From NCBI GenBank assembly GCA_964035545.1, contig OZ037773.1, forward strand, positions 2,261,751 to 2,325,750: DNA of 64,000 nucleotides, written 5' to 3'. This document shows, in pieces, positions 36,665 to 63,135 of the stretch. The notes below the pieces were generated by a model. It saw nothing but the letters and a program-made list of their open reading frames with translations, did not search any database and had not been told where the DNA came from. Source of the stretch: Bugula neritina. Taxonomy: Eukaryota; Animalia; Bryozoa. Made by a program: the position numbers and the translations under genes. Within the stretch, counting starts at the first letter, position 1. Every line of letters begins with the position of its first letter.

Positions 36665-36687
36665 GTGGCCCTGAAAAGGCCCGTTGG
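36665..36687 (-). terminator. Replication-dependent histone mRNA 3' stem-loop (one stem mismatch)
   Basis: Minus strand CCAAC-GGGCCT-TTTC-AGGGCC-AC, preceded by the same 3' UTR that follows the H2B stop in the array copies (TAATCTC..CAGCTCCACTAACCCC). Confidence 0.85.
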
Positions 36688-36689
36688 GG

Positions 36690-38060: not shown

Positions 38061-38129
38061 TCCAGACATTCGAGCTGCTGTAGCCTTTCCTGCTTTCTTG
38101 GCACCTTTGGAGCTAACTTTAAGAGGCAT
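38060..38129 (-). pseudogene. H2B: Histone H2B N-terminal fragment (first 23 codons or so)
   Basis: MPLKVSSKGAKKAGKATAARMSG matches invertebrate H2B tails. Similarity stops before the histone fold. Confidence 0.8.
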
Positions 38130-38224
38130 GCTGTTCAGTTAGTGATAATGTTGAATGCTTGTTCTCGATGTAGTGACTGCAACAGTAGTTTGATGCTAAA
38201 TGATGTCCAGATCTTAGGGCACTC

Positions 38225-38345
38225 TGTATTTATATGTATCAACAGTAGTTAGAAATTATCCAATCAGATAGCAGTTGTGTAAGCTGCCGCCTTAGTGTGC
38301 CCTAATGTTTACATTGAAAACAATTATTTGTCATAGACCAATGAA
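38225..38345 (-). promoter_or_regulatory. Histone-type promoter
   Basis: TATAAA at 38234-38229, about 100 bp above the H2B ATG. CCAAT boxes at 38260-38264 and 38338-38342. Confidence 0.6.
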
Positions 38346-41300
38346 ACTCCTAGAACACTCTAATTTGCATATCTTATACGATATAGCCACGTCAAACTGT
38401 TGGGGAAATAGGTAGGCAACTTCGAGTTGAATTCCAATAAGTTACTCTAAAGTCTAAACTTTGAAATAATATTTTTCTTTTCAACCATTATATTGACATA
38501 ATGTAGATTTTGACTCAAGTTTGTATATAACATCATTTACAATACTTCTAAAAATATTCTGAAAGTATTACATCACACAAACAATTGCATACTTACAGTA
38601 TAATATGCTTTCATTCTAAAATGCAGCATACACTCTCAGTATATGATGTAGCATATGCTCTCAGTCTATAATGCAGCATACACTCTCAGTCTATTATATA
38701 GCATAATATGCTCTCAGTGTATCATCACGGGCTTTCCATGGATCCGTCTCAGCTAGATCGATCTGAAAAATGTGCTCAGATCAATCAATTTTCCATGACG
38801 ATGTAAGATCAATCTTGCGTAGTTGTCTCAAATGTATGGGTGTTGGTTTTGTATGACTTACTAAAAATAAACTAAAATATAAAACTTCATACTTGGTCTT
38901 TTAGATTAAAAATGTATATTATAATTGCACATTTCATTCCTTTGTCGTAGACAGTTTAGTATCTGATTTGTTACAATGTCTGCGCTTTAAAAAAAATCTT
39001 TGAAAATTACAAAAGCTTCATAGGGCATCACCTCAAAAAAAGAAAACCTTGCCTAGATCTGCTAATGGTGATTTAATTGGTGCACTTTGTGATTGTGCTT
39101 GCAATATAATTAGAGGAAATGTTCCTTTGACTTCAAAGCAGTTCAATAATCTTAGGATGCATCATTAAGTAATTAAAAGCTCTCACTAATAAGTCGAGTG
39201 TCAAAAATAAGCAAAAAATCATTCAAAAAGGTGGACTTATTGGATTGCTGTTGAAGCCTCTAGCTAAGATCTTGATGGGTGGACTTTTAAGTTGACATCA
39301 TAAAAAAGTATTACTTAATTGATCCATCAAAATATGAAATGCTTAAATCAGCTGCTAGTGCTGGAAATGAAAAGCGACAAAATAATTTTGACATATCTAC
39401 GCATCCAAATATTAAAAATGTAAAAGATATAGATCAAAAAATGGAAGAAACAGTAAATAAATCAGATTTGACAGTTTCTGAAAAGGTTGAAAAATACAAT
39501 GCACTACTAGAGAAATATATCAGAAACTTTAGGAATGCTCTTGAAACCTCAAAACCTATTCCCGTCACTTGGATCCCCCGCTGAGTCAGCTGAATGAGGA
39601 AGGTAATGATGACACTAAAGACTGTCATTCATCTCTTAATAATGGTGAGTTCTGAGTGTATAAGAAAATTGTTTTCTGTATTGTAATATACCCAAGCCAA
39701 TGTTTGTTTAAGTAGAGTGTATCATGTTGGCTCAACTCAAACTCAACTCTATAAAATTGGCCGATGAAGTGTAATGTGTGACCAGAATTCAATTATCAAT
39801 AAACAGGTGTACTCCTGTAAATGCAAGTTTCAGATTGCACTTCTTCAACCTATGCTGCTAAATTTCTCTTTTCAACTTGTAAATTCTGCATAATCTTTAC
39901 TTGCTGACGTTATTTACAGAGGTTATTACTCTTCGTACAGACCCCAAGGAGCTCCCACCACCTTTACCTTAATTTCCAAGTCAACCAGTCATAGCACCGT
40001 GGACAAGGTAATTCCTCTATTGTATTCCTCTAAATAACAAATCTAGGGTGCATGGAACAAGTAGGGGAATTATGAGGCGCAACAACAAAGTCATGACTTA
40101 TAATCAAACTAGGGCTGGTCTTAGTTTTTTTCTATGCTAAGTGAAAAATACATAGTTACTACTTTTCCACTTGATATGTAGATATCGTGCTGTTATCCCA
40201 AATATTGTGTATATATTTTGATGTATAACAATGACTCGTATATTATTATTTTTTTTATTTTTAAATATTTTTTTACTCTTACAATTATGGTGTTTTTACA
40301 AATGTATGGGTGTTGGTTTTGTATGACTTACTAAAAATAAACTAAAATATAAAACTTCATACTTGGTCTTTTAGATTAAAAATGTATATTATAATTGCAC
40401 ACTTCATTCCTTTGTCATAGACAGTTTAGTATCCGATTTGTTACAATGTCCGCGCTTTAAAAAAAATCTTTAAAAATTACAAAAGCTTCATAGGGCATCA
40501 CCTCAAAAAAAGAAAACCTTGCCTAGATCTGCTAATGGTGATTTAATTGGTGCACTTTGTGATTGTGCTTGCAAAATATTTAGAGGAAATGTTCCTTTGA
40601 CTTCAAAGCAGTTCAATAATCTTAGGAAGCATCATTAAGTAATTAAAAGCTCTCACTAATAAGTCGAGTGTCAAAAATAAACAAAAAATCATTCAAAAAG
40701 GTGGATTTATTGGATTGCTGTTGAAGCCTCTTGCTAAGATCTTGATGGGTGGACTTTTAAGTTGACATCATAAAAAAGTATTACTTAATTGATCCATCAA
40801 AATATGAAATGCCTACATCAGCTGCTAGTGCTGGAAATGAAAAGCGACAAAATAATTCTGACATGTCTGCGCATCCAAATATTAAAAATGTAAAAGATAT
40901 ATATCGAAAAATGGAAGAAACACTAAATAAATCAGATTTGACAGATTTTGAAAAGGTTGAAAAATACAATGCACTACTAGAGAGATATATCAGAGACTTT
41001 AGGAATGCTATTGAAACCTCGAAACCTAAAACAATCCTTGGTGAACCTGCTTTAAAAACTATAGATTTAAATAGTACCACAGAAAACAAAAGCAATAATC
41101 AGTTTCAATCTTTTGGAGAATCACTTGACAGTATTCCTATATCATACCGTCAAAAAGCTCGTAAATTGGTGAGTTTCTTGAAAAAAAAACAACTCATTTT
41201 CTGTTAATCAAGACAATGAACTGCTTTAAAAAAAATCACGTATTAAGAGGTTCAAATGTTAATCAATTAATCAATGATGCAGTACGAAACAAAAAACCAA

Positions 41301-41522
41301 TAACAAGCAATGCATTATTTACACAGTTTGTAGAAAATTTGAATGCAGAAGGATACCCAGCTAAACAGATATTGTCCAAGAGCCATGTCCAAAACCCTCC
41401 AATAACATCTAACATAGATCTTATTCCAAAACTGACAGAAGCAAGCCTCAAAGGCGTTTAGCCCCATATAAATATTCGTCTCAAACAGTAGATGACATAC
41501 TGAAAAACTGGCTTTCTTAAAA

Positions 41523-42470
41523 ATGACCAAAAAATGCAAAGCAAAAACCTCTAGCACATTGAACAATTTTTATTTCAATCCACAAGAAATTGGAAGCTTA
41601 GGTGAAAAGCGTGTATTTTCCAAACGTTTGGCTCAGAATGGATATAAATATAAATCTAGAACAATTTCAAAATGGTTGCAATCTCAAGAAGCTTATACTC
41701 TTCCCAAGCCTGTTGGGCAAAAATTTATTTGAAGATCTACATTAGCTAATGGATTAAATGATCAGTTCCAAGCTGATCTGATTGACATGCAAAAACATAG
41801 AAATTCAAATTCTAATCATGGTTATATCCTAACTGTTGTAAATGTGTTTTCAAAGTTTTCATAGGCTAAGCCGTTAAAGTCAAAATCTGGACAAGAGGTC
41901 GCTCAAAAATTGAAAGACATATTTACTTTACGCAAATGTAGGGTGCTGCAAACAGACAAAGGAAAAGAACTTTATAATACAAAGGTCAAGACTTTATTAA
42001 CAAAGTTTGATATATTACACTTTTCATCGGAAAATGACGACATAAAGGAGGCAGTTGTAGAGAGGTTTAATAGAACTCTTCAAACTAGATTATATCGATG
42101 GTTTACCAAAACCCAGGAGCATAACTGGACTAATGTCATCGAACACATTGTTGATATATATAACAATACCGTCCCCTCATCAACAAAATTTTCACCAGCA
42201 AACATTTATAGGGAAAATGAAGAAGATGTTTGGCTTAATTTGTATGGAAACTTGAAAGCGCCTAGTCTTTTGAATGCAAGGCTAAAAACTAATGGCATTT
42301 TTAGAATAAGCAAGTACAAACATGTTTTTAGTAATGGATATATAAAAAATTGGTCTATAGAAAGTTTTATTGTCAGTCAAGTTTTAGAAACTTATCCTGT
42401 AACTTATTGTCTTAAAGATCAACAAAACGAATTAATTCATGGTTGATACTATGAAGATGAGCTTCAAAAA
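41523..42470 (+). pseudogene. Polinton rve integrase, disrupted (other copies at 46319-47268, 51947-52907, 54713-55092, 57336-57590)
   Basis: FYFNP..GSLGG, QFQADLIDM, LQTDKGKE, VVERFNRTL, RISKYK..F..GY..NWS.E.F, YEDELQKV. In-frame stops. Confidence 0.9.
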
Positions 42471-42716
42471 GTTATGCACCAGCACAAAGAAATATCTCAT
42501 AAAGCCATGAAGATCATGAATGAAAAGCATCCAGCCTAACACACTACAACAGGCTATCCACCATAACAAGCCGAGAGATACAGACTGCTGTGAAGCTAGT
42601 TTTGCCGAAAGATTTGGCTAAACACGCTGTGTAGGAGGGCGCACAAAGGTTGTAACTAAATACACCATCCCCAAGTAATCTCACCCAGCTCCACTAACCC
42701 CGCTGGGCCTTTTCAG
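42470..42716 (+). pseudogene. H2B: Histone H2B C-terminal half plus 3' UTR and half stem-loop
   Basis: Translates to H..K.IS.KAMKIMN / [37 protein letters not shown] / TKVVTKYT.PK*, followed by GGGCCTTTTCAG. Confidence 0.88.
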
Positions 42717-42844
42717 TAGATTGAATTTAGTTGTCAAAACTATATGTCTGTTTTGTTATTTGATATTCAATCATGTTTTATAGAACATATAATATCATTG
42801 ACTATTTAACATCTGTTTACAAACCAGGGATGATGGTTAACAAA

Positions 42845-44990
42845 GCATGATAAAATTCAATTTGTAATTACAAGAAGCAACGAAATGAAGTGTATCAGAA
42901 TTAAACATTTAAAATTTTTTGACATCATAAATTTTATAGCTCCATGGTTTTCACGTGCAAATTTTATCAAAGCATACAATTGTAGTATGAAGAAAAGCTT
43001 TTTCCCATATGAATATGTCATATCATTAGAAAAGCTCAATGAAAATTCTCTGCCTGCACATGAAGCTTTCTACAGTAGTCTAACTCAATCAAATATCACA
43101 GCAGCAGACTATCAGAATTGTAACCAGGTTTGGCAAAACAAAAACATGCTCACAATGAAAGATTGTTTGATTTGTTACAACAATCTTGATGTATTACCAT
43201 TTTTAGAGGCAGTTGAAAAACAACGCATGGTTTATCGTGAAAAAGGCATTGATATGTTCAAGGATGAAATTAGTGTTCCATCTTTAGCTACTAAATGATT
43301 ATTTCATGAACCAAATACTAAAAACCTTTTTATTCCATTGATTGGCAGAAAAGATGCAGACTTGTATAAAACTATACGGAATAATATTATTGGGGGTCCA
43401 AGTATTGTTTTCCACAGCTATCATGATGCTGACAAAACTTCCATTTGTAACAATTCATTTGATAGTAAGTCAAAAGTTTGTAAAAATGTGTTTGGATTTG
43501 ATGCCAATGCTTTGTATTTGTATTGTGCTACGCAAGAACTTCCAACAGGTTTAACTATTAGAAGAGGTAAAGAAAATACCTTTCCTCCAAAGTTTTGTGA
43601 CTATTTTGGGAGACCGAGTGTTGAATTGCTGGAGTACTGCTCCTACTTGAATGGTGTATTTATTCAACATAAATATAACAAGGGTGAACAAAAAGTTAGG
43701 CAGCACAGGCTCCCAGTAGATGGTTATTGCAAGAAATTGAAAACAGTTTTTCAGTTACATGGTTGTCTATTTCATGGACATAAGTGTGTAAAAACAAAAG
43801 AGGTAGTATTTAATCCCATCAATGGAAAATCAATGACATCATTGTACCAAGACACTAAAATAAAAGAATCCTATATCCGTGCATTAGGTTATAGACTTGA
43901 GGTGATATATGAATGCCAATGGGAAAGTTATAAAAAGTTTTCAAAACCTTGTAAAAATTTTTTAGCTTTGTTTCTCTCTAGAGAAATGGAGGAAAATAAA
44001 CCAATGACTGAAAAAGATATCCTTAATGCAGTTGAAAACAATTTATTTTATGGTTTTGTAGAATGTGAATTATATGTTCCTGACAGTGTGAAATCTAAGT
44101 TTTCTGAAATGACACGAATTTTTAAATATGCAAGTTTAAGCAGATCTGACTTGTCAGAGGATATGCTAAAATATGCTGTACACTATGACATGTTGAAACA
44201 GGCTCAAGACACTTATTGGTAGTTACTATGGCAAAAAGATGTTGGTACTTACTCCGCTTCTTAGGTGGTATTTATCACATGGACTATGTGTTTCTAATAT
44301 TTATCAGGTTGTTCAATTTAAACAGCATAAATGCTTTGTGGAATTTGGAGAGTCTGTATGTCAAATGAGACAAAATGCTGACAAAGACTCTTCCATGAAA
44401 ATTCTTGCTGAAACTTCGAAGTTTTACGGTAATGTAATATATGGTGCAACTATAACAAATAAAGAGCGTATTACTGATGTAAAATTTGTTTCTAATTTAA
44501 ATGCTGCTGAAAAGCTTGTGAGTAGTAAACATTTTATGTCTATAGAAGAGCTTGATGATAAAGTTTTAAAGCTGTGGGCAAGATACTTGTAAGGGCATTG
44601 AAGAGTGCTGCTATAGAGTGTGGTGAAAGTTTCACAATGGGTGACAAAACATTAATCCAACTGGCTAATTCACAGTTACAAGGTCAAGAAAGCAATTATT
44701 GCTCTGAATTCAAAAACCTATTTTTGTTTTGGAGATGAGGGTAATAAACTTAGAACAAAAGGAATAATGAAACGATGTAATGACATAAAAAAGAATTTTT
44801 AAATGTGCTAAATAACAAATCTAGGGTGCATGGAACAATAGGGAAATTATGAGGCGCAACAACAAAGTCATGACTTATAATCAAACTAGGGCTGGTCCTA
44901 ATTTTTTCTATGCTAAGCGAAAAGTACATAGTTACATGGTTACATAGTTACATAGTACATGGAGTTACTACTTTTCCACTCAATATGTAG
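42845..44990 (+). pseudogene. Protein-primed family B DNA polymerase (Polinton pPolB), disrupted; partial copies at 40030-40180, 53670-54260, 55600-56195, 59650-60075
   Basis: FFDIINFIAP, K.FFPYEY, IIGGPSIVF, FDANALY, an inserted nuclease-like segment (LPVDGY..QLHGCLFHGH..YECQW), KFYGNVIYG and C-terminal TYNQTRAG..FFYAKRKV..GVTTFPL. The YxDTDS region is absent. Confidence 0.88.
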
Positions 44991-45252
44991 ATATCATACT
45001 GTTATCCCAAACATTGTGTATATAATTTGATGTATAACAATGAATCGTATAGTATTATTTTTTATTTTTAAATATTTTTTTGCTCTTACAATTATGGTGT
45101 TTTTACAAATGTATGGGTGTTGGTTTTGTATGACTTACTGAAAATAAGCTAAAATATAAAACTTCATACTTGGTCTTTTAAATTAAAAATGTATATTATA
45201 ATTGCACACTTCTTTCCTTTGTCATAGACAGTTTAGTATCCAATTTTTTACA

Positions 45253-45555
45253 ATGTCTCTGCACTTTAAAAGAAACCTTTCAAAATTACAAAAGCTTCAT
45301 AAAAAAACCTTGCTTAAATCTGCTAATGGTGATTTAATTGGTGCGCTTCGTGATTGTGCTTGCAATATAATTAGAGAAAATGTTCTTTTGAATTCAAAGC
45401 AGCTCAATAATCTTAGGATGCATCATAAACAATTAAAAGCTCTCACTAATAAGTCAAGTGTCAAAAATAAACAAAAAGTCATTCAAAAAAGTGGATTTAT
45501 TGGATTGCTGTTGAAGCCTCTTGCTAAGATCTTGATGGGTGGACTTTCAAGTTGA
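45253..45555 (+). CDS. Small basic Polinton-associated protein ending in QKGG-F plus an amphipathic helix (open copies here and at 58795-59115)
   Basis: DLIGALCDCACNII.GNVPL..KQ...QKGGFIGLLLKPLAKIL, a pattern recalled from animal Polintons. In this copy QKGG reads QKSG. Confidence 0.55.
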   Translation: MSLHFKRNLSKLQKLHKKTLLKSANGDLIGALRDCACNIIRENVLLNSKQLNNLRMHHKQLKALTNKSSVKNKQKVIQKSGFIGLLLKPLAKILMGGLSS

Positions 45556-45559
45556 CATC

Positions 45560-46300
45560 ATAAAAAAGTATTACTTAATTGATCCATCAAAATATGAAAT
45601 GCTTAAATCAGCTGCTAGTGCTGGAAATGAAAAGCGACAAAATAATTCTGACATGTCTGCGCATCCAAATACTAAAAATGTAAAAGATATAGATCAAAAA
45701 ATGGAAGAAACACGAAATAAATCAGATTTGACAGATTCTGAAAAGGTTGAAAAAGACAATGCACTACTAGAGAAATATATCAGAAACTTTAGGAATGCTC
45801 TTGAAACCTCAAAACCTGAAATAATCCTTGGTGAACCTGCTTCAAAAACTATAGATTTAAATAATACCACAGAAAACAAAAGCAATAATCAGTTTCAATC
45901 TTTTGAAGATTCACTTGACAGTATTCCTATACCATACCATCAAAAAGCTCGTAAATTGGTGAATTTCTTGAAAAACAACAACTCATTTTCTGTTAATCAA
46001 GATACTGAACTGTTTTACAAAAATCAAGTATCAAGAGGTTCAAATGTTAATCAATTAATCAATTAATCAATGATGCAGTATGAAATAGAAAACCAATAAC
46101 AAGCAATGCATTATTTACACAGTTTGTAGAAAATTTGAATGCAGAAGGATACCCAGCTAAACAGATATTGTCCAAGAGCCATGTCCAAAACCCTCCAATA
46201 ACATCTAAGATAAATCTTATTCCAAAACTGAAAAAAGCAAGCCTCAAAGGCGTTTAGCCCCATATAAATATTCGTCTCAAACAGTAGATGACATACTGAA
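45560..46300 (+). pseudogene. Conserved Polinton uncharacterised ORF between the small basic ORF and the integrase (six copies, all broken or truncated)
   Basis: IDQKMEE.LNKSDLTD.EKVEKYNALLEKY, SIP..Y.QKARKLV.FLK and GSNVNQLINDAVRNKK. Confidence 0.6.
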
Positions 46301-47267
46301 AAACTGGCTTTCATAAAAATGACCAAAAAATGCAAAGCCAAAACCCCTAGCACATTGAACAACTTTTATTTCAATCCACGAGAAGTTGGAAGCTTAGGTG
46401 GAAAGCGTGTATTTTCCAAGCGTTTGGCTCAAAATGGATATAAATATAAATCTAGAACAATTTCAAAATGGTTGTAATCTCAAGAAGCTTATACTCTTCG
46501 CAAGCCTGTTGGGCAAAACATTATGCGAAGATCTACATTAGCTAATGGAATAAATGATCAGTTCCAGGCTGATCTGATTGACATGCAAAAACATAAAAAT
46601 TCAAATTCTAATCATGGTTATACCCTAACTGTTGTACATGTGTTTTCAAAGTTTTCATGGACTAAGCCGTTAAAGTCAAAATCTGGAAAAGAGGTCGCTC
46701 GAAAATTGAAAGAAATATTTGCTTTACGCAAATGTAGGGTGCTGCAAACAGACAAAGGAAAAGAACTTTATAATACAAAGGTCAAGACTTTATTAACAAA
46801 GTTTGATATATTAAACTTTTCATCGGAAAATGACGATATAAAGCGGGCAGTTGTAGAGAGGTTTAACAGAACTCTTCAAACTAGATTATATCGATGGTTT
46901 ACCAAATCCCAGGAGCATAACTGGACTAATGTCATCGAACACATCGTTGATATATATAACAATACCGTCCCCTCATCAACAAAATTTTTACCAGCAAACA
47001 TTTATAGGGAAAATGAAGAAGATGTTTGGCTTAATTTGTATGGAAACTTGAAAGCGCCTAGTCTTTTGAATGCAAGGCTAAAAACTAATGACATTTTTAG
47101 AATAAGCAAGTACAAACATGTTTTCAGTAATGGATATATAGAAAATTGGTCTATAGAAAGTTTTATTGTCAGTCAAGTTTTTTGAAACTGATCCTGTAAC
47201 TTATTGTCTCAAAGATCAACAAAACGAATTAATTCATGGTTGATACTATGAAGATGAGCTGCAAAAA

Positions 47268-47496
47268 GTTATGCACCCGCACAAAGATATATCTCTTAAA
47301 GCCATGAAGATCATGAATGAAAGGCATCCAGCCTAACACACTACAACAGGCTATCCACAATAACAAGCCGAGAGATACAGACTGCTGTGAAGCTCATTTT
47401 GCCGCAAGATTTGGCTAAACACGCTGTGTAGGAGGGCACAAAGGTTGTAACTAAATACACCAGCCCCAAGTAATCTTACCCAGCTCCACTAACCCC
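47268..47496 (+). pseudogene. H2B: Histone H2B C-terminal half, copy 2
   Basis: [38 protein letters not shown]. Confidence 0.88.
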
Positions 47497-49688
47497 ATTG
47501 ATGAAAATGATTGAGGATGGAGTAATTGTTAAAATTGATAAACCTACTCCATGGGTGGCACACCTATGGTAGTAGTTCCTAAACTTGGCCAAAACAAGGT
47601 GAGAATTTGCACAGATTCTACCGAGGTAAACAAGCATATTTTGAGAGAGTTCCATCTCATGGCAACAGTAGATAGCAGCTTAGCTCAATTAGGACAAAGA
47701 CAAATTTTTTCTAAGATCGATGCAAACAGTGGATTTTGGCAAATTCCTTTAAGCAAAGAATCTAGCAAACTAACAACATTTCTGACTCATTCTGGACGAT
47801 ATCGCTATTTGCGACTGCCTCAAGGCCCATGCAGTGCTCCAGAGATTTTTGTTGCTGAAATGAACAATATTTTGAAGGATGTTGATGGTGTGGTTATACA
47901 TATAGATGACATACTGGTTTTTGGTGAGAGCAAGGAGCAACATGACACAAGATTGCAAATAGTGTTAGAAAAACTTGAAGCTTCAAGCATTACGCTCAAT
48001 AAAGACAAATGTAAATTTGGAGTGGCATCTGTTAATTTTCTTGGTTATGTCATAGATCAGTCTGGTAACTTCAGTACGAAGTTTTCTTGGAATGGCCAAC
48101 CAGCATGCTAAGTTTTCCGAGGAATTAGCTGCTGTGAGTGAACCAATTAGAATGCTGTTGAAGAAAGATGTTCCATGGCACTGGTCCAGCAAACAAGAAA
48201 ACTCCTTCAAGACGATAAAAGAAATATTTCAAAATGCACCATTTTTAGCAGTCTATGATGTAGACAAAGACACCATAATCACAACAGATGCTAGCAATGC
48301 AGGTCTAGGAGCAACACTCTGTCAAAATCAACAGGATGTCTCTCGGCGCTTGAAATCTCCTGCAAGTCGATCTTTAACAGTGACCGAAAAGCGTTATGCA
48401 GCCATAGAAAAAGAAAGTTTAGCAGTCTGTTGGGCTATGGGAAAGTTTTCTCCACATATACTAGGTATGACGAATGTGGTTATTGAAACTGATCACCGTC
48501 CACTAGTTACTTTGTTTGGGAATATCTTTCTAGACAGGCTTCCACCAAGAATTCAAGGGTTTAAACTTAGACTTCAAAGATTTCAGTATACTATCAGACA
48601 TGTGAGGGGGTCTAAGAATGTTGCAACTGATGCTCTCTCCAGGTATAACACTGCTGAAGTAAACGAGATTGATGCAGCAAGAGAAATGGAAATTGAACTT
48701 TGTATTGATAACATCTATCAACATGGATCTAATAGTAGGTTGGAGCAGCTTCGTTTAGAACAGCATGAAGATGAAATACTGTCCAAAGTAATCAAATTAG
48801 TAGAGAATGGATGGCCAGGGTATTTGTCCACTGAAGATGTCCTTCTGAAGCCCTATTTTGAAAGAAGATCCATTTAACAATAAACAAAGGATTCTTGACA
48901 CTTGGCAATCGTTTGATAATACCGTTAGCTCAAAGAGAACACGTGTTGCAAGATTTACATAGAGGACACTTGGGCATTACAAAATGTCAAACACAGGCTA
49001 GAGATAGCGTGTGGTGGCCTTCTATGTCAAAGGCTATTGAGGCTATGATCAGCAATTGTGCTGAATGCAAAATCCATGCAGCTAAAATTACAGAGCCATT
49101 ACGTCCTTCTGCAACTCCAGATAAACCTTGGCAACACCTTAGCACTGATTTGTTGTTTTATAACGGCCAAGTATATCTTCTGGTTATTGATATTTATTCA
49201 AGGTAACCTGAACTTGCCTTGCTGGGAAACTCTGACTTTTCTTCAAGTAAAGTAATAACACACCTAAAATCTATTTTTCCACGACATGGCATACCTGAAA
49301 TACTATTGTCAGATAACGGCCATCAATATGCAAGTGCAGAATTTAAACATTTTTCTGTCGAGTATGGATTTACCCATGTGACTAGCAGCCCACATTATCA
49401 CAGAGCGAATGGAGCAGCTGAGCGAGGAGTAAGGACCATCAAAAGCATGCTTGCAAAAGAGAAAGATCCTTATTTGCCTTTGTTAGCCTATAGATCCTCA
49501 CCGCAGTATAGCTCATACTCTCCAACAGAATTGTTAATGGGTAGAAAATTGAGATCCACTGTACCCATCCATCCGGATAAGCTTAAACCTGAACTCCCTG
49601 ACCATGACTTATTCAAAAAGAGCAACAATCAGTATAAAGAGAAAATGGAAGAAAATCATGACAAAAATCCTAAAGTGCGCCCTCTTGG
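47497..49688 (+). mobile_element. Ty3/Gypsy pol fragment (RT, RNase H, integrase), disrupted, no LTRs seen
   Basis: PMVVVPK, KIDANSGFWQIPL, RLPQG..SAPE, HIDDILV, TDASNAGLGA, ETDHRPL, LHRGHLG..C..C, SDNG, AERGV. Confidence 0.93.
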
Positions 49689-50360
49689 GAGGTGAAACTT
49701 CCTAATGCGTATTCTGCAGAACAAATATCAGCCAAGTATGAGTCTATTCCACAGGCAGGTGCTCTTACCGCCTGGCCACATTTGCAAGACTTAGCAAAAA
49801 ACATAGTCAAGGGACAAGACATTTAAGTAGGGCTACTCATTGGAGGCAATTGCCCATTAACCTTCAAACCTAGCGAGGTACTAGTCGGAAACGACGCAGA
49901 CGATGAACCATTTGGCGTACGTACTGGCCTAGGGTGGGTTATCATGGGTAGTCTAGATACAAATAACACACATGATGACAATTCAGGCAACAAAACAACA
50001 ATAGTCAATAAAACCGTAACTCATTCACTCAAGAAAGCTAAAACATCAGTATCTTTCAAATGCCAAACTGAAACATCAAAACAAATAAATAAAATAATTA
50101 ATTTATTGGCTCAAGATTTCAAGGAATGTGTAACAGACAAAGAAGCGGCTTCTGTAGAAGACAGAGCATTTTTGTCTCATGAAACAAAAAACAAAGATCG
50201 TTGATGATCATGTCACCATGCCTTTACCTTACAAACACAAACCACCGCTAGATAACAGTTTTAAAACAGCAAAAAACCATTTCAACTCACTGCTGAGAAA
50301 GTTCTCTAAGAACCAAGACTTGGAAAACCAGTACAAAGAGTTTATGGAAGACTAAAAACC
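49689..50360 (+). mobile_element. BEL/Pao retrotransposon fragment (region between protease and RT), copy 1
   Basis: WPHLQDL, VGLLIG.NCP, EPFGVRTGLGWVIMG, SVEDRAFL, MPLPYK. Confidence 0.8.
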
Positions 50361-52906
50361 CCATGTTGACGGAAGTTACATTTGTTAACGTATAGTATTT
50401 TTTTATGCAGATAAAGCAAAGACAAAATACTTTGCTGCAACTAATTTTTAGTGCATATTTGGAAGAAGAAGTCATCAGTGCTTGAAAATAATGGGACCTA
50501 CTGACTTGGGTAAAAATAATATATATTTTAGTAATACTACCATGCATGTATATAACATAAAGACAGGGATGGAGTTATTACTTTTCCACTCAATATGTAG
50601 ATATCGTGCCGTTATCCCAAATATTGTGTATATATTTTGATGTATAACAATGAATCATATATTATTATTTTTTATTTTTAAATATTTTTTGCTCTTACAA
50701 TTATGGTGTTTTTACAAATGTATGGGTGTTGGTTTTGTATAACTTACTAAAAATAAACTAAAATATAAAACTTCATACCTGGTCTTGTAGGTTAAAAATG
50801 TATGTTATAATTGCACACTTCTTTCCTTTGTCATAGACAGTTTAGTATCCAATTTTTCACAATGTCTCTGCGCTTTAAAAGAAATCTTTCAAACTTACAA
50901 AAGCTTTATAGGGCATCACCTCAAAAAAAGAAAACCTTGCTTAAATCGGCTAATGGTGATTTAATTGGTGCACTTTGTGATTGTGCTTGCAATATAATTT
51001 GAGGAAATGTTCTTTTGAATTCAAAGCAGTTCAATAATCTTAGGATGCATCATTAAGTAATTAAAAGCTCTCACTAATAAGTCGAGTGTCAAAAATGAAC
51101 AAAAAATCATTCAAAAAGGCGGATTTATTAGATTGCTGTTGAAGCCTCTTGCTAAGATCTTGATGGGTGGACTTTTAAGTTGACATCATAAAAAAGTATG
51201 ACTTAATTGATCCATCAAAATATGAAATGCTTAAATCAGCTGCTAGTGCTGGAAATGAAAAGCGACAAAATAGTTCTGACATGTCTGTGCATCCAAATAT
51301 TAAAAATGTAAAAGAGATAGATCAAAAAATGGAAGAAACACTAAATAAATCAGATTTGACAGATTTTGAAAAGGTTGAAAAATACAATGCACTACTAGAG
51401 AAATATATCAGAAACTTTAGGAATGCTCTTGAAACCTCAAAACCTGAAATAATCCTTGGTGAACCTGCTTCAAAAACTATAGACTTAAATAATACCACAG
51501 AAAACAAAAGCAATAATCAGTTTCAATCTCTTGAAGAATCACTTGACAGTATTCCTATATCATGCCGCCAAAAAGCTCGTTAATTGGTGAATTTCTTGAA
51601 AAACAACAGCTCATTTTCTGTTAATCAAGACAAGGAACTGCTTTAAGAAAATCACGTATTAAGAGGTTCAAATGTTAATCAATTAATCAATTAATCAATG
51701 ATGCAGTACAAAACAAAAAACCAATAACAAGCAATGCATTATCTACACAGTTTGTAGAAAATTTGAAAGCAGAAGGATACCCAGCTAAACAGATATTGTC
51801 CAAGAGCCATGTCCAAAACCCTCCAATAACATCTAAGATAAATCTTATTCCAAAACTGACAGAAGCAAGCCTCAAAGGCGTTTAGCCCCATATAAATATT
51901 CGTCTCAAACAGTAGATGACATACTGAAAAACTGGCTTTCTTAAAAATGACCAAAAAATGCAAAGCCAAAACCCCTAGCACATTGGACAATTCTTATTTC
52001 AATCTACGAGAAGTTGGAAGCTTAGGTGGAAAGTGTGGATTTTTCAATCGTTTGGCTCAGAATTCTGAGCCAATGGATATAAATATAAATCTAGAACAAT
52101 TTCAAAATGGTTGCAATCTCAAGAAGCTTATACTCTTCGCAAGCCTGTTAGGCAAAAACTTATTCGAATATCTACATTAGCTAATGGAATAAATGATCAG
52201 TTCCAAGCTGATCTGATTGACATGCAAAAACATAAAAATTCAAATTCTAATCATGGTTATATCCTAACTGTTGTAAATGTGTTTTCAAAGTTTTCATAGG
52301 CTAAGCCGTTAAAGTCAAAATCTGGACAAGAGGTCGCTCAAAAATTGAAAGACATATTTACTTTACGCAAATGTAGGGTGCTGCAAACAGACAAAGGAAA
52401 AGAACTTTATAATACAAAGGTCAAGACTTCATTAACAAAGTTTGATATATTACACTTTTCATTGGAAAATGACGACATAAAGGAGGCAGTTGTAGAGAGG
52501 TTTAATAGAACTCTTCAAACTAGATTATATCGATGGTTTACCAAAACCCAGGAGCATAACTAGACTAATGTCATCGAACACATTGTTGATTTATATAACA
52601 ATACCGTCCCCTCATCAACAAAATTTTCACCAGCAAACATTTATAAGGAAAATGAAGAAGATGTTTGGCTTAATTTGTATGGAAACTTGAAAGCGCCTAG
52701 TCTTTTGAATGCAAGGCTAAAAACTAATGACATTTTTAGAATAAGCAAGTACAAACATGTTTTCAGTAATGGATATATAGAAAATTGGTCTATAGAAAGT
52801 TTTATTGTCAGTCAAGTTTTTTGAAACTGATCCTGTAACTTATTGTCTCAAAGATCAACAAAACGAATTAATTCATGGTTGGTACTATGAAGATGAGCTG
52901 CAAAAA

Positions 52907-53152
52907 GTTATGCACCCGCACAAAGAAATATCTGTTAAAGCCATGAAGATCATGAATGAAAAGCATCCAGCCTAACACACTACAACAGGCTATCCACCAT
53001 AACAAGCCAAGAGATACAGACTGCTGTGAAGCTAGTTTTGCCAAAAGATTTGGCTAAACACGCTGTGTAGGAGGGCGCACAAAGGTTGTAACTAAATACA
53101 CCATCCCTAAGTAATCTTACCCAGCTCCACTAACCCCGCTGGGCCTTTTCAG
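52907..53152 (+). pseudogene. H2B: Histone H2B C-terminal half, copy 3
   Basis: Same sequence and the same lesions as 42470-42716. Confidence 0.85.
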
Positions 53153-56100
53153 TAAATTGAATTTAGTTGTCAAAACTATATGTCTGTTTTGTTATTTGAT
53201 ATTCAATCATGTTTTATAGCACATAATGAATCATTGACTATTTAATATTTTAAATTCATTTATTTATTTGCGATTGTATTGTAACACCCTATAAGACTTA
53301 CCAGATCAGTATTATGGCATAGTTTGTTTTAAATTTCAAAATAGAGAGCTGTTTGTCAACTTAAAATAGCTAAAATAATGTTAATAATCATTTCTTATAG
53401 TTTGGTTTATGCATGGAAGTTTTAATATTTATTACTTGAAGAGTTGTTTTTAGCTTTCTATTACTGGCCACAGTACAAAGCCTATAGTTAGTAGTGAAAC
53501 CTATTTTTCAATTTTCTGCACCTTTTATTGCTAGACTAAGTTACAAAGTATTGTAACGGGCGTTACAGAATTATAGACTGCACATACATGCTGGACTTCG
53601 CAAGGAAAGAAAGAAGTATTAAATTCATTCCCCAAATCTGTTTACAAACCAGGGATGATAGTTAACAAAGCATGATAAAATTTAATTTTCAATTAAAAGA
53701 AACCACGCAATGGAGTGTATCAGAACTAAACATTTAAAAGTTCTTGACATCATAAATTTCATAGCTCCATGGTTTTCATGTGCAAATTTTATCAAAGCAT
53801 ACAATTGTAGTATGAAGAAAGGCTTTTGCCCACATGAATATGTCATATCATTAGAAAAGCTCAATGAAAATTCTCTGCCTGCACATGAAGCTTTCTACAG
53901 TAGTCTAACTCAATCAAATATCACAGCAGCAGACTATCAGAATTGTAAACAGGTTTGGCAAAACAAAAACATGCTCACAATGAAAGATTATTTGATTTGT
54001 TACAACATTCCTGATGTATTACCATTTTAGAGGCAGTTGAAAAACAACGCATAGTTTATCGTGAAAAAGGCATTGATATATACAAGGATGGAATTAGTGT
54101 TCCATCTTTAGCTACTAAACGGTTATTTAATGAATCAAAGACTAAAAACTTTTCTATTCCGTTGATTGGCAGAAAAAATGCATACTTGTATAAAACTATA
54201 CGGAATAATATTATTAGGGGTCCAAGTATTGTTTTCCACAGGTATCATGAAGCTGACAAACAGCATGCTACATAAAAACAGCTCAAAAGGTGCCAAAAAA
54301 AACAAGAAAGAAAGGAGAAAAAAACTTTTAGATTAAAAATGTTTATTATAATTGCACACTTCATTCCTTTGTCATAGACAGTTAAGTATCCAATTTTTCA
54401 CAATGACTCTGCGCTTTAAAAGAAACCTTTCAAAATTACAAAAGCTTCATAGGGCATCACCTCAAAAAAAGAAAACCTTGCTTAAATCTGCTAATGGTGA
54501 TTTAATTGGTGCACTTTGTGATTGTGCTTGCAATATAATTAGAGGAAATGTTCTTTTGACTTCAAAGCAGTTCAATAATCTTAGGATGCATCATTAAGTA
54601 ATTAAAAGCTCTCACTAATAAGTCGAGTGTCAAAAATAAACAAAAAATCATTCAAAAAGGTGGATTTATTGGATTGCTGTTGAAGCCTCTTGCTAAGATC
54701 TTGATGGGTGGACATTTTCCAAACGTTTGGCTCAGAATGGGTATAAATATAAATCTAGAACAATTTCAAAATGGTTGCAATCTCAAGAAGCTTATACTCT
54801 TCGCAAGCCTGTTAGGCAAAAATTTATTCGAAGATCTACACTAGCTAATAGAATAAATGATCAGTTCCAAGCTGATCTGATTGACATGCAAAAACATAAA
54901 AATTCAAATTCTAATCATGGTTATATCCTAACTGTTGTAAATGTGTTTTCAAAGTTTTCATGGGCTAAGCCGTTAAAGTCAAAATCTGGACACGAGGTAG
55001 ATCAAAAATTGAAAGAAATATTTGCTTTACGCAAACGTAGGGTGCTGCAAACAAACAAAGGAAAAGAATTTTAAAAATACAAAAGTCAAGACAGTAAATT
55101 GAATTTAGTTGTCAAAACTATATGTCTGTTTTGTTATTTGATATTCAATCATGTTTTATGGCACATAATATATCATTGACTATTTAATATTTTAAATTAA
55201 TTATTTATTTGCGATTGTATTGTAACACCCTATAAGACTTACAAGATCAGTATTATGGTGTAGTTTGTTTTAAATTTCAAAATAGAGAGCTGTTTGTCAA
55301 CTTAAAATAGCTAAAAAAATGTTAATAATCATTTCTTATAGTTTGGTCTATGGAAGTTTTAATATTCATTACTTGAAGAGTTGTTTTTGGCTTTCTATTA
55401 CTGACCATGCAGTACAAAGCCTAGTTAGTAGTGAAATTTATCTTTCAATTTTCTGCACTTTTTATTGCTAGACCAAGTTACAAAGTATTGTGACAGGTGT
55501 TACAGAATAGACTGCACATACATGCTGGACTTCGCAAAGAAAGAAAGAAGTATTAAATTCATTCCCCAAATCTGTTTACAAACCAGGGATGATAGTTAAC
55601 AAAGCATGATAAAATTCAATTTGTGATTAAAAGAAGCAACGCAATGAAGTGTATCAAAACTAAACATTTAAGATTTTTTGACATCATAAATTTTATAGCT
55701 CCATGGTTTTCATGTGCAAATTTTATCAAAGCATACAATTGTAGTATGAAGAAAGGCTTTTTCCCATATGAATATGTCATATCATTAGAGAAGCTCAAGG
55801 AAAATTCTCTGCCTGCACATGAAGCTTTCTACAGTAGTCTAACTCAATCAAATATCACAGCAGCAGACTATCAGAATTGTAAACAGGTTTGGCAAAACAA
55901 AAACATGCTCACAATGAAAGATTATTTGATTTGTTACAACAATCCCGATGTGTTAACATTTTTAGAGGCAGTTGAAAAACAAAGCATGGTTTATCGTGAA
56001 AAAGGCATTGATATGTTCAAGGATGAAATTAGTGTTCCATCTTTAGCTACTAAACGGTTATTTAATGAATCAAATACTAAAAACTTTTCTATTCCGTTGA

Positions 56101-56195
56101 TTGGCAGAAAAGATGCAGACTTGTATAAAACTATACAGAATAATATTATTAGGGGTCCAAGTCCTGTTTTCTACAGGTAACATGAAGCTGACAAA

Positions 56196-56312
56196 CAGCA
56201 TGCTACAGAAAAATAACTCGAAAGGTGCCAAAAAAGACCAGAAAAAAAGGAGAAAAAAACCGAAACCGTACACAGCGCTTACCTTTAAAACATTCTAAAA
56301 AAAGTCCACCTC
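56196..56312 (+). pseudogene. H2B: Histone H2B N-terminal fragment (shorter copy at 54260-54325)
   Basis: AACAGC-ATG context shared with 38129. Reads M...NSKGAKKDQKKRRKK, then after a frameshift SAYL*NILKKVH, resembling H2B YSIYIYKVLKQVHP. Confidence 0.7.
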
Positions 56313-57589
56313 AGAAAAAAGAAAACCTTGCTTACATCAGCTAATGGCGATTTAATTGGTGCACTTTGTGATTGTGCTTGCAATATAATTAGAGAAAATG
56401 TTCTTTTGAATTCAAAGCAGTTCAATAATCTTAGGATGCATCATAAACAATTAAAAGCTCTCACTAATAAGTCGAGTGTCAAAAATAAACAAAAAATCAT
56501 TCAAAAAGGTGGATTTATTGGATTGCTGTTGAAGCCTCTTGCTAAGATCTTGATGGGTGGACTTTTAAGTTGACATCATAAAAAAGTATTACTTAATTGA
56601 TCCATCAAAATATGAAATGCTTAAATCAGCTGCTAGTGCTGGAAATGAAAAGCGACAAAATAGTTCTGACATGTCTGCGCATCCAAATATTAAAAATGTA
56701 AAAGATATAGATCAAAAAATGAAAGAAACACTAAATAAATCAGATTTGACAGATTTTGAAAAGGTTGAAAAATACAATGCCCTACTAGAGAAATATATCA
56801 GAAACTTTAGGAATGCTCTTGAAACCTCAAAACCTGAAACAATCCTTGGTGAACCTGCTTCAAAAACTATAGACTTAGTAATACCACAGAAAACAAAAGC
56901 AATAATCAGTTTCAATCTTTTGAAGAATCACTTGACAGTATTTCTATATCATACCGTCAAAAAGCTCGTTAATTGGTGAATTTCTTGAAAAACAACAACT
57001 CATTTTCTGTTAATCAAGATAACAAACTGCTTTACAAAAATCAAGTAATAAGAGGCTCAAATGTTAATCAATTAATCAATTAATCAATGATGCAGTACGA
57101 AACAAAAAACCAATAACAAGCAATGCATTAATTACACAGTTTGTAGAAAATTTGAATGCAGAAGGATACCCAGCTTAACAGATATTGTCCAAGAGCCATG
57201 TCCAAAACCCTCCAATAACATCTAAGATAAATCTTATTCCAAAACTAAAAAAAGCAAACCTCAAAGGCGTTTAGCCCTATATAAATATTCGTCTCAAACA
57301 GTAGATGACATACTGAAAAACTGGCTTTCCTAAAAATGACCAAAAAATGCAAAGCCAAAACCCCTAGCACATTGAACAATTTTTATTTCAATCCACAAGA
57401 AGTTGGAAGCTTAGGTGGAAAACGTGTATTTTCGAAACGTTTGGCTCAGAATGGATATAAATATAAATCTAGAACAATTTCAAAATGGTTGCAATCTCAA
57501 GAAGCTTATACTCTCCGCAAGCCTGTTAGGCAAAAATTTATTCGAAGATCTACATTAGCTAATGGAATAAATAATCAGTTCCAAGCTGA

Positions 57590-58293
57590 CCTAATCATCA
57601 AAGGATATAGCTGTAATAAGGAGGTGAAACTTCCTAATGCGTATTCTGCAGAACAAATATCAGCCAAGTATGGGTCTATTCCACAGGCAGGTGCTCTTAC
57701 CGCCTGGCCACATTTACAAGACTTAGCAAAAAACATAGTCAAGGGACAAAACATTTCAGTAGGGCTACTCATTGGAAGCAATTGCCCATTAGCCTTCAAA
57801 CCTAGCGAGGTACTAGTCGGAAATGACACAGACGATGAACCATTTGGCGTACGTACTGGCCTAGGGTGGGTTATCATGGGTAGTCTAAATACAAATAACA
57901 CACAAGATGACAATTCAGGCAACAAAACAACAATAGTCAATAAAACCGTAACTCATTCACTCAAGAAAGCTAAAACATCAGTATCTTTCAAATGCCAAAC
58001 TGAAACATCAAAACAAATAAATAAAATAATTAATTTATTGGCTCAAGATTTCAAGGAATGTGTAACAGACAAGGAAGCCGCTTCTGTAGAAGACAGAGCA
58101 TTTTTGTCTCTCATGAAACAAAAAACAAAGATCATTGATGATCATGTCACCATGCCTTTACCTTACAAACACAAACCACCGCTAGATAACAGTTTTAAAA
58201 CAGCAAAAAACCGTTTCAACTCACTGCTGAGAAAGTTCTCTGAGTCCAAGACTTGGAAAACCAGTACAAAGAGTTTATGGAAGACTAAAAACC
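57590..58293 (+). mobile_element. BEL/Pao fragment, copy 2, fused in frame to the Polinton integrase N-terminus
   Basis: ORF 57336-58328 switches from QFQADLI to IKGYSCNKEVKLPNAY...WPHL...LLIGSNCP. Confidence 0.8.
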
Positions 58294-60080
58294 CCATGTT
58301 GACAACAGTTACATTTGTTAACGTATAGTATTTTTTTATGCAGATAAAGCAAAGACAAAATACTTTGCTGCAACTAATTTTTAGTGCATATTTGGAAGAA
58401 GAAGTCACCAGTGCTTGAAAATAATGGGACCTACTGACTTGGGTAAAAATAATATATATTTTAGTAATACTACCATGCATGTATATAACATAAAGACAGG
58501 GATGGAGTTACTACTTTTCCACTCGATATGTAGATATCTTGCTGTTATCCCAAATATAGTGTATATATTTTGATGTATAACAATGAATCATATATTATTA
58601 TTTTTTATTTTTAAATATTTTTTGCTCTTACAATTATGGTGTTTTTACAAATGTATGGGTGTTGGTTTTGTATAACTTACTAAAAATAAACTAAAATATA
58701 AAACTTCATACCTGGTCTTATAGGTTAAAAATGCATGTTATAATTGCACACTTCTTTCCTTTGTCATAGACAGTTTAGTATCCAATTTTTCACAATGTCT
58801 CTGCGCTTTAAAAGAAATCTTTCAAACTTACAAAAGCTTTATAGGGCATCACCTCAAAAAAAGAAAACCTTGCCTAGATCTGCTAATGGTGATTTAATTG
58901 GTGCACTTTGTGATTGTGCTTGCAATATAATTAGAGGAAATGTTCCTTTGACTTCAAAGCAGTTCAATAATTTTAGGATGCATTATAAAGAAATAAAAAC
59001 TCTCACTAATAAGTCGAGTGTCAAAAATAAACAAAAAATCATTCAAAAAGGTGGATGTATTGGATTGCTGTTGAAACCTCTTGCTAAGATCTTGATGGGT
59101 AGACTTTTAAGTTGACATCATAAAAAACTATTACTTAATTGATCCATCAAAATATGAAATGCTTAAACCAGCTGCTAGTGCTGGAAATGAAAAGCGACAA
59201 AATAATTCTGATATGTCTGCGCATCCAAATATTAAAAATGTAAAAGATATAGATCAAAAAATGGAAGAAACACTAAATAAATCAGATTTGACAGACTTTG
59301 AAAAGGTTGAAAAATACAATGCACTACTAGAGAAATATATCGGAAACTTTGGGAATGCTCTTGAAACCTCAAAACCTGAAACAATCCTTTGTGAAGCTGC
59401 TTCAAAAACTATAGATTTAAATAATACCACAGAAAACAAAAGCAATAATCAGTTTCAATCTTTTGAAGAATCACTTGACAGTATTCCTATATCATACCGT
59501 TAAAAAGCTCGTAAATTGGTGGATTTCTTGAAAAACAACAACTCATTTTCTGTTAAACAAGATAACGAACTGCTTTACAAAAATCAAGTATTAAGAGGTT
59601 CAAATGTTAATCAATTAATTAATGATGCAGTACGAAACAAAAAAATAGAAATAGAAAAGCTTGATGATGAATTTTTAAAGCTGTGGGCAAGATGCTTGCA
59701 AGGGCATTGAAGAGTGCTGCTATAGAGTGTGGCGAAAGTTTCACTCTGAGTGACAATACATTAATCCAACTGGCTAATTCACAGTTACAAGGTCGAGAAA
59801 GCAATTATTGCTCTGAATTCAAAAACCTATTTTTGTTTTGGAGATGAGGGTAACAAACTTAGTACAAAAAGAATAATGAAACGATGTAATGACATAAAAA
59901 AGAATTTTTAAATGTGCTAAATAACAAATCTAGAATGCATGGAACAAATAGGGGAATTATGAGGCGCAACAACAAAGTCATGACTTATAATCAAACTAGG
60001 GCTGGTCCTAATTTTTTCTATGCTAAGCAAAAAGTAACTAGTAATGGAGTTACTACTTTCCCACTCGATATGTAGATATT

Positions 60081-60499
60081 ATGCTGCAAAACAAACAAGA
60101 AGCAAAGATTGTTATTGTTGGATTAGCTAGTCACACAGCAAAAAACAGCTCATACCTCTACTCTCCATTCAAATTTGAAAATTATGATGTGTCCTCAGTA
60201 AACCTAACTGTAAATAGTCATAATGTACTAAACACTCCTTTGCAACTTAATTTTGGGAAAGATATCTATGTGCGTATCATAACCTCATGTCAGTATGTGA
60301 TAAGAGCTTCATGAATGAGGGCAACAATATATCTGTGGAAGAATTTAGAGAAAGTGTCTGCTTATTTGCTTTTGATAATACTCCTGATCAGTGTCATGGT
60401 GAAAGAATTTACTTGATTCTAACGTTTCGTAAGCCAACTGAAGAAACAATTAGCGTATTAGTGTACACAGAAACAGATGATCTGATTGAGATTGATTAA
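60081..60499 (+). pseudogene. Polinton double-jelly-roll capsid-type protein, C-terminal fragment
   Basis: IVIVGL..NSSY..SPFKFE..LTVN..PLQLNF..YVR, LFAFDNTPD and VLVYTE..LIEID, with a frameshift. Confidence 0.75.
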
Positions 60500-60529
60500 G
60501 ACTTGAGTAGCAACAAGAGCTTCAACATC

Positions 60530-61005
60530 ATGAACACTCTTCAATTGTTGGAAGTTTTGAGCAAAGACCAATTTTTGACAAAAATATTTCAATATGTTCT
60601 CCCATTAGACAAATTTATGCAGACCAAGTTTTCTTTCTCTTCATCAATTATATTCACCTATGATACTTCAGAAAAGTCAGGAAGCCACTGGGTGGCAGTG
60701 TTTATATCCGAAAAAGGAAAAATAAAATATTTTGATTCATCTGGCATTAAGCCTATTACAAAAGAACTATTGTCTAAAATTTGCTCTTTATTAAACTTAT
60801 GCCTCGTTTCAATTTAATCAGATTTCAAAGCAAATCTTTTGCTTGTGGACAATACTGTTTAATATTTTTGATGCTTCGAGCTAGAGGATTTTCTTTTATT
60901 CAGAATTTGTTGTTAGAATGCTCTACACCACATGAGAAAGATCACATATTAAACATGTTTATTAATAAATTGACAGGGTTTAACCTAGATGCTCACAAAA
61001 TGTAA
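60530..61005 (+). pseudogene. Adenain-like cysteine protease of Polinton, frameshifted
   Basis: GSHWVAV, YFDSSG and FQS...CGQYC give the H/D/C catalytic motifs. Confidence 0.85.
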
Positions 61006-62534: not shown

Positions 62535-63135
62535 AGCTCCCTGGCAACCACCAGTAACACTATGAAAACATGCAATTGCAAGTGTCTACTCTCTAATATC
62601 ATATACCAGGCCACCATAACATCACTAAACAGCTCAAACACATACATCGGACTATGTGAAACTAACTTTAAAAAGCGCCTATACAATCACTCCTGCTCTT
62701 TCAAGCATAAAAGATACAGAAATGCCACAGAGTTGAGTAAGCATATATGGACAAAGGCACCAGCTACACAATCAACTGGAAGATTATTAGTCATGCGCCC
62801 AGCTATAACCCCAACTCTAAACGTTGCATGCTATGCACTTTAGAAAAATATTATATTATATGCAAACCCAGCCTATGTACATTAAATAAAAGATCTGCGT
62901 TAAAATCAACATGCAGGCATAGCTCTAAGTTTTACTTAAACCGGTTCAAATATATAAGCTTTGTTTAATAATAATGCCTATTTTTCCTTTTAATACTTTA
63001 GCTATATTTTAAATCCATACAATTTTTACATTCCAATTCTGTTGTTTCACTATTTTATACATCACCCTGACGAGTGGCAGTAATTTCATGCTACGAAACA
63101 AATTTGTAGGTGATATAATTGATTTTAAATAAAAG
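62535..63135 (+). mobile_element. Penelope-like element 3' remnant (GIY-YIG endonuclease and pLTR region)
   Basis: [52 protein letters not shown]. Frameshifted and followed by a hammerhead motif. Confidence 0.85.
63061..63114 (+). ncRNA. Type I hammerhead ribozyme
   Basis: AUCACC-CUGACGA-GUGGCA(GUAAUUUCA)UGCUAC-GAAA-CAAAUUUG-UA-GGUGAU: stems I and II pair, the core is intact, stem III is palindromic and the cleavage triplet is GUA. Confidence 0.88.

Follow-up and report, generated by a model that had tools for sequence, protein, structure and literature searches.

We analysed 64,000 nucleotides of the Bugula neritina contig OZ037773.1 (positions 2,261,751 to 2,325,750; hereafter the window), animal DNA with a G+C content of about 33%. 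At 38830–61005, on the plus strand, it contains a patchwork of about 30 segments that amounts to 9.8 kb of non-redundant sequence; its right end was set at the stop codon of a protease-like open reading frame (ORF). The map of 30 segments was drawn from self-comparison, comparison with the related Polinton locus L001 and inspection of the joins. By bases, the patchwork is 70% Polinton, 10% Gypsy pol, 6% BEL/Pao and 4% histone H2B, the remaining 10% being other host-type pieces, which we call b, c, d, f and g. The initial annotation had described a 22-kb mosaic in a single orientation. Such a mosaic does exist, and its sources were confirmed by profile matches and sequence comparison. The patchwork is real, and its anatomy is unusual.

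The Polinton segments, in which ORFs are named by their lengths in L001, all lie on the plus strand. They comprise 38830–39557 (intergenic DNA, ORF104 and the first 84 codons of ORF242), 40028–42477 (C-terminus of pPolB, ORF104, ORF242 and an integrase cut before its chromodomain, with stops and frameshifts), 42830–44575 (the middle of pPolB, approximately residues 592–1175 of the L001 protein), 44691–47275 and 50571–52914 (each with the end of pPolB, ORF104, ORF242 and integrase), and 59801–61005 (the end of pPolB, the 3′ third of a capsid-like gene and the protease-like ORF). The pieces match the DNA_pol_B_2 and rve profiles, the former kind of evidence also placing the pPolB middle, and are 35–68% identical to pPolB, ORF104, ORF242, integrase and a 444-aa capsid-like ORF of L001, whose 171-aa protease-like ORF they match as well. 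Homology of polymerase, integrase, capsid and protease to one element family marks them as Polinton-derived, and the segments that contain integrase were additionally identified by integrase comparison, their copies being 85–89% identical to the intact integrase P0121. As in Polinton/Maverick elements, the pPolB, chromodomain integrase, capsid-like and protease-like genes follow the L001 order, but the patchwork holds broken internal pieces only. Every copy of pPolB and integrase is truncated or stop-bearing, and comparison with L001 found no ATPase or minor capsid piece in the window. Polintons are characterised by terminal inverted repeats (TIRs) and a 6-bp target duplication; self-comparison found no inverted match inside the patchwork or between its ends.

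Histone H2B is represented by its 3′ half with the 3′ untranslated region (UTR), cut within the stem-loop, at 42478–42716 (plus strand; copies at 47276–47496 and 52915–53152), which matches H2B chains in the Protein Data Bank (PDB) with E about 2e-19. Its 5′ half, which reaches as far as the VHP codons, lies at 56193–56309 (plus; translation and join inspection) and is joined to Polinton ORF104 with a 4-nt overlap; a short copy of the 5′ piece occupies 54258–54325 (plus; self-comparison and translation). The 5′ pieces, which gave no PDB match and are too short for one, were recognised by eye alone. A single-copy internal pol fragment without a long terminal repeat (LTR) spans 47497–49686 on the plus strand and covers reverse transcriptase (RT), RNase H and integrase. 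Its domain order is RVT_1, RT_RNaseH, Integrase_H2C2 and rve, from which we take it to be of Gypsy type, and it lies 2–4% from the closest donor contigs among those listed. The adjoining BEL/Pao internal fragment (49688–50352, plus; slightly longer copy at 57589–58285) derives from just upstream of RT and matches P0155 at 54%; P0155 in turn aligns to P0156, the bearer of Peptidase_A17 and DUF5641. No LTR was seen anywhere in the patchwork.

Several of the host-type pieces recur in a neighbouring sister locus, HX. Piece b (39558–40020, plus) is an exon/intron fragment, 86% identical to HX, whose end lies about 20 nt inside the intron. Piece c (44576–44690, plus; copy at 59683–59800) replaces about 130 pPolB codons, and its 81% identity to HX is the sole basis of its orientation. 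Piece d (50353–50570, plus; copy at 58286–58503) consists of an intron end, an exon and an intron start and is partly common to HX, at 84–87%. Pieces f and g (53153–53656, plus by guess; copy at 55092–55595) combine AT-rich intron-like DNA with an exon-like ORF, and self-comparison revealed a shortened plus-strand copy of them at 42717–42829. For piece g, no relative was found among 1.84 billion representatives, and Atlas matches were all below 0.8. Pieces b, c, d and g, together with 60950–62520, gave no blastn match in 80 related loci and no credible translated match to the ORFs of nine of these 80. Neither the genome-contig nor the viral-contig collection contained a match to a 25-nt motif taken from piece b, and a scan of the viral-contig collection with P0001 was likewise negative. 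Since b, c, d and H2B all co-occur in one neighbouring locus, they may represent a single donor family.

That locus shows that the structure reaches past the left end of the patchwork. HX lies inverted at 36640–38260 on the minus strand, and within it, at 36671–38135, five patchwork pieces recur inverted with 79–87% identity. Self-comparison and translation resolve HX into upstream TATA/CCAAT-like motifs (by eye), an H2B-like start (ATG at 38129 and about 20 H2B-like codons), pieces b, c and d with GT–AG introns, the H2B stop region, a 3′ UTR and a stem-loop. Past the H2B tail, a stretch MSGR...KGL weakly resembles the start of H4. The stem-loop (36640–36687) matches Histone3 with E 0.01 and 19.2 bits against a gathering score of 34, and was found in a 401-base search only. 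HX has no complete histone fold, since it contains only the roughly 20 N-terminal codons and gave no Pfam match. Its shared exon shows six non-synonymous versus three synonymous codon changes, a small sample that gives no apparent sign of protein constraint. Contigs from four public runs (X1, X3, X7 and X11), which carry no strand information, were compared with 45100–50600. None of the runs listed is recorded as RNA or small RNA, which bears in no way on expression, and the H2B 3′ piece lacked coverage in X3, X7 and X11, a gap to which we attach no weight. In X11, whose RNA origin is a guess, one contig with a loose end at 50409 has the last b exon set directly on the d exon, and another loose end, at 50470, resembles the HX ending. 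The X11 letters differ from both window copies; because they match neither exactly, a third, spliced member of the HX family likely exists. By its anatomy, HX is best described as an older chimera that is built of patchwork pieces within an H2B frame and reads in sense, and its co-orientation would need no antisense selection. We found no description of such an H2B frame in the literature searched. The spacer between the two diverging arms (38260–38830) contains CCAAT-like and octamer-like motifs, seen by eye, and a minisatellite of a 25-bp unit (38598–38722) that occurs a second time in an intron at 30839–31066. This spacer is a candidate promoter common to both arms.

Within the patchwork itself, self-comparison showed that 38830–60086 consists of blocks present up to seven times at 87–97% identity in shuffled order, which bears out the re-duplication noticed at the outset. 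Redundant sequence accounts for 12,409 of 22,176 bp, i.e. 56% of the patchwork is local duplication. The initial annotation also spoke of dozens of fragments from at least five unrelated sources. The roughly 30 segments and their sources stand, but the distinct joins number about 20, rather than dozens of independent events, and the independent donors three or four. Duplications of 8-mers attributable to slippage, at 44920–44960 and at 46047, 51675 and 57064, mark subsets of copies.

Of the codons that changed between integrase copies, 21 of 26 and 22 of 26 did so non-synonymously, and the substitutions are spread evenly over the codon positions; pPolB copies show a similar pattern. This pattern indicates that the patchwork copies decay neutrally. 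Over residues 45–275, the three long integrase copies have 16 differences from the intact protein in common, a further 10 are common to two of them, and each copy has 5–10 of its own. Multi-copy alignments are star-like, with 233 singleton sites versus 32 shared splits, several of them mutually incompatible. These data suggest either a brief duplication burst or gene conversion about 1–2% divergence ago.

The orientation of the pieces is strikingly uniform. Self-comparison within 38830–61005 returned 66 same-strand matches and no inverted one, 22 of the 25 ORFs of at least 100 aa are on the plus strand, and all identified pieces are sense on that strand, as the initial annotation had held. To what extent this uniformity is informative depends on how many choices of strand were independent. 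Deletions and direct duplications preserve orientation. In L001, a single strand carries pPolB, ORF104, ORF242, integrase and the capsid-like and protease-like genes, ordered as in unbroken stretches of the patchwork; because of this, the Polinton genes were likely co-oriented natively, and Polinton likely counts as one choice. Nine of the 80 related loci were examined, of which four were long enough to include pPolB. These four (L001 and L004–L006) have the block from ORF104 to protease in common, and the place and strand of pPolB vary. For three or four independent donors, the chance of co-orientation is p 0.125–0.0625 (1/8–1/16), and for six or seven separate fragments p 0.016–0.008 (1/64–1/128), in a window that was picked for its one-way look. 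The contention that the bias persists among distinct donors is therefore correct insofar as all agree, but only three or four are independent and 56% of the bases are local duplication. The strand bias is suggestive, not decisive.

This bias had led to the proposal of a unistrand PIWI-interacting RNA (piRNA) cluster. Under that reading, a putative minus-strand precursor would be antisense to all donors at once, and antisense additions would have been retained by selection. Mobile elements of three families, for which longer donors exist elsewhere, indeed contributed fragments serially and on one strand. Unistrand clusters have been predicted in Drosophila from strand bias alone (PMC10643416), class 2 clusters of oyster show a 32-fold enrichment of Polinton and a fivefold one of BEL (PMC6128900), and PIWI1 and PIWI2 are present in bryozoans (PMC11114477). 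In addition, a second class of planarian piRNA clusters bears sense Polinton pieces (10.64898/2026.01.28.702291). Histone mRNAs feed the ping-pong cycle in Aedes (PMC5416884), which is not evidence for the patchwork. On the other hand, the element pieces share their orientation with H2B and the remaining host pieces, so that a precursor would be antisense to host sequence. Selection for anti-transposon piRNAs would not lead one to expect this, and antisense genic sequence is depleted from the antisense-LTR clusters of planarians (10.64898/2026.01.28.702291). In the adjacent HX the pieces are likewise co-oriented and together read in sense as one spliced unit, and the sole promoter-like feature seen lies at this sense-reading locus. 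Private substitutions (233 sites) showed significant strand asymmetry in none of six pairs, a comparison of low power. A 10A signature at the starts of fragments was set aside because exact ends were too few. Flamenco and flam-like loci are likewise made of strongly one-stranded mobile-element sequence gained by serial additions (PMC10643416, PMC10495008), but they span 227–1,085 kb, are Gypsy-driven, with a bias confined to Gypsy (PMC10643416), and include full-length elements (PMC10495008). The patchwork, by contrast, is 22 kb of internal fragments, mostly Polinton and 56% self-duplicated, with no element end or full-length insertion; insertions with ends, dominance of LTR/Gypsy elements and a length over 100 kb, as in flamenco-type clusters, are all lacking. 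We consider selection as a piRNA cluster unlikely, though deserving of serious attention.

Could the pieces have arrived together, already aboard a mobile carrier? Either a defective Polinton concatemer or a Helitron-like element might have integrated here with its cargo. A concatemer fits the 70% of bases that are Polinton, but leaves the Gypsy, BEL and host patches unexplained. Carriers of captured fragments typically have several family members and spliced forms, and HX has at least three members, one of them seemingly spliced. Helitron-type ends consist of a 5′ TC and a 3′ hairpin followed by CTRR, and dispersed copies have the same ends. At this single locus, no such end was recognised by eye or self-comparison, and no TIR was found. 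Moreover, the donors can be followed beyond the patchwork joins. In X3 the integrase continues into its chromodomain beyond 47275, while the X7 contig stops at 47285; Gypsy donor contigs have loose ends at 47496 and 49686 and BEL donor contigs at 49688 and 50351–2 (X1, X3 and X7 in both cases). At each join, donor contigs in two or three of the four runs pass as plain integrase–chromodomain, Gypsy or BEL. An intact 361-aa integrase of the patchwork Polinton family is also present in the protein collection, on contigs of up to 11.7 kb. Because integrase, Gypsy and BEL run past the joins in independent runs and an intact integrase exists, these comparisons indicate that longer donors exist elsewhere without the patchwork cargo at these joins. 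Within 45100–50600, then, no intact Polinton already holding all the pieces came to light. Together with the lack of matches to b, c, d and g in the related loci, this makes a carrier improbable.

The same contigs bear on the order of events. From the nearest of the listed donor contigs, integrase differs by 7.3–7.4%, BEL by 6.8–8.4% and Gypsy by 2.2–4.3%, and the Gypsy piece cuts into the BEL piece, whose second copy begins about 100 nt earlier. Because Gypsy is so much closer to its donors, these distances suggest that it was the last addition. X3 and X11 contain internally deleted Gypsy relatives (48415–49285 and 48973–49325), suggestive of non-autonomous Gypsy copies elsewhere.

An assembly artefact, with repeats collapsed or mis-joined, is very improbable. 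Copies differ by 4–8% through ordinary substitutions; in 12 aligned copy pairs, transitions are about twice as frequent as transversions and single-base homopolymer indels are few. Several joins recur in two or three diverged copies. One X1 contig crosses the integrase–H2B join, with its two sides covering 133 and 221 nt, and another X1 joint matches the join at 54714 with a side of 30, one below the threshold. X1, the best run, contains 0.35 of the sampled words and is possibly related to the source sample, so that its support is modest; among the records listed, none spans the patchwork and none bridges the Gypsy and BEL joins. The artefact that was raised as a possible objection is not evident.

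The joins themselves are informative about mechanism. We inspected 21 by eye, and at about 13 the continuation of the donor was readable. Overlaps at readable joins are 0–4 nt, and two joins have short local duplications. Both H2B halves are broken at the same VHP codons and overlap Polinton DNA by 4 and 2 nt, so the description of joins free of LTRs, TIRs and target duplications holds for the LTRs and TIRs but misses the 4-nt overlap where H2B meets Polinton DNA. Pieces b and d retain intron ends, which are missing from the joined form in X11. The median overlap is 2 bp in DNA gap-filling capture (PMC8277862) and 6 bp in LTR retroposition (PMC5131818). Because overlaps are 0–4 nt and intron ends are kept, we favour template switching at the DNA level. 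Our tentative choice, which we hold at somewhat less than even confidence, is that the patchwork is dead, built by repair at an H2B-derived locus and then multiplied in a local duplication burst. As the shared VHP breakpoint suggests, an H2B-type gene would first have received a Polinton segment as a patch. The BEL piece and short stretches from the H2B-framed chimeric family would have been further patches, the Gypsy piece entering last. Repeated template switching, in break repair or replication, would have joined the pieces, and direct-orientation copying in one burst would then have multiplied the apparent strand bias. The single orientation would mostly be inherited from a few donors, plus some luck. 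On this view the locus would code for no functional protein, and small RNAs, if any are made from it, would be incidental.

Several observations weigh against this scenario. DNA template switching normally yields some inversions, and there are none among three or four donors or six or seven fragments (p 0.125 to 0.008); the later Gypsy piece and the older HX chimera are likewise co-oriented. Native co-orientation of pPolB is seen in one of the four sufficiently long relatives (L001), the gene being reversed in L004–L006. The order of ages is built on the closest listed contigs rather than on full donor families. Every identified piece is internal to a transcribed region, none being a TIR or an LTR, and the H2B 3′ piece stops within the stem-loop that terminates the mRNA, as expected of an RNA template. 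The absence of inversions and the last two features would be accounted for by RNA-templated assembly, in which RT would switch among sense transcripts (those of Polinton, Gypsy, BEL and histone as well as unspliced HX) and the resulting chimeric cDNA would enter the locus by integration or recombination; a common orientation would then follow from the mechanism itself. Template switching by LTR elements is documented to make multi-parent chimeras (PMC5131818), donor-like contigs occur in the probable RNA runs X7 and X11, and Gypsy and BEL, both present here, are the two families with which co-oriented viral fragments are associated in Aedes aegypti (10.1101/127498). However, the intron ends kept in b and d would require pre-mRNA templates, there is no flanking LTR pair, no poly(A) occurs at any join, and the overlaps are below the median for LTR retroposition. 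RNA templating is thus possible but has a limited chance of being correct. In our ranking, DNA repair debris is ahead, with RNA-templated assembly and then the selected piRNA cluster close behind.

How does the patchwork relate to known systems? The piRNA clusters of Aedes aegypti formed by endogenous viral elements and LTR elements (10.1101/127498) also contain virus-derived fragments that point the same way as Ty3/gypsy and Pao/BEL sequence. Those fragments come from an RNA virus, the regions concerned are extensive and densely populated by LTR elements, and antisense piRNAs have been demonstrated, whereas the patchwork, known from its DNA sequence, combines a DNA element with host histone pieces. 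Gap-filling capture by Pack-TIRs (PMC8277862) resembles it in internal breakpoints, overlaps of about 2 bp, intron-bearing fillers and chimeric transcripts, but usually involves one filler within one TIR element; the patchwork has no TIR, and its roughly 20 joins bring together several donors. Chimeras made by LTR retroposition (PMC5131818) similarly place partial pieces of several parents on internal LTR-element sequence, but they are intron-less and LTR-flanked with a 6-bp median overlap; the patchwork retains intron ends and has no LTR. It is a variant of known co-oriented fragment loci, and we place it in no piRNA cluster class. The literature searched, mostly without subscription journals, described no Polinton–histone–LTR fragment patchwork and no Polintons in Bugula-type genomes.

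Upstream, as far as 34.8 kb, ordinary host genes lie on the plus strand; they were labelled by eye except for one profile match. Between 1514 and 34765 these include transporter-like (1.5–5.2 kb), PHD-finger-like (7.9–10.2 kb) and purple-acid-phosphatase-like (26.9–31.7 kb) genes. The exception is an intron-less 7tm_1 receptor gene (33830–34762, plus) of a Bugula-expanded family; of its 21 relatives, all seven named ones are from Bugula neritina (43–72% identity). Downstream, 61005–62500 covers 1.5 kb past the patchwork, with an AATAAA about 50 nt beyond the stop of the protease-like ORF. A Penelope-like 3′ fragment follows at 62508–63140 (plus), with a GIY-YIG ORF, then a type I hammerhead-like motif (63061–63114; E 0.04, under the gathering score) and a TA microsatellite at its end. 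An Rfam scan of 33000–64000 gave microsatellite matches only.

How piRNA source loci acquire sequence is an open question, notably for DNA elements such as Polintons, which cannot be trapped by LTR insertion. A locus of internal fragments only, all pointing one way and acquired in several steps over time within a histone-gene frame, would be a direct test case for it. A bolder and doubtful idea is that H2B-framed transcription units of bryozoans serially take up sense fragments of active mobile elements, including Polinton, via reverse-transcribed RNA, amplify them locally and act as a small-RNA memory. If true, this would represent a route into piRNA source loci without any transposon insertion. 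If the patchwork is debris, it would still illustrate clearly how serial patch repair turns a histone gene into spliced chimeric units.

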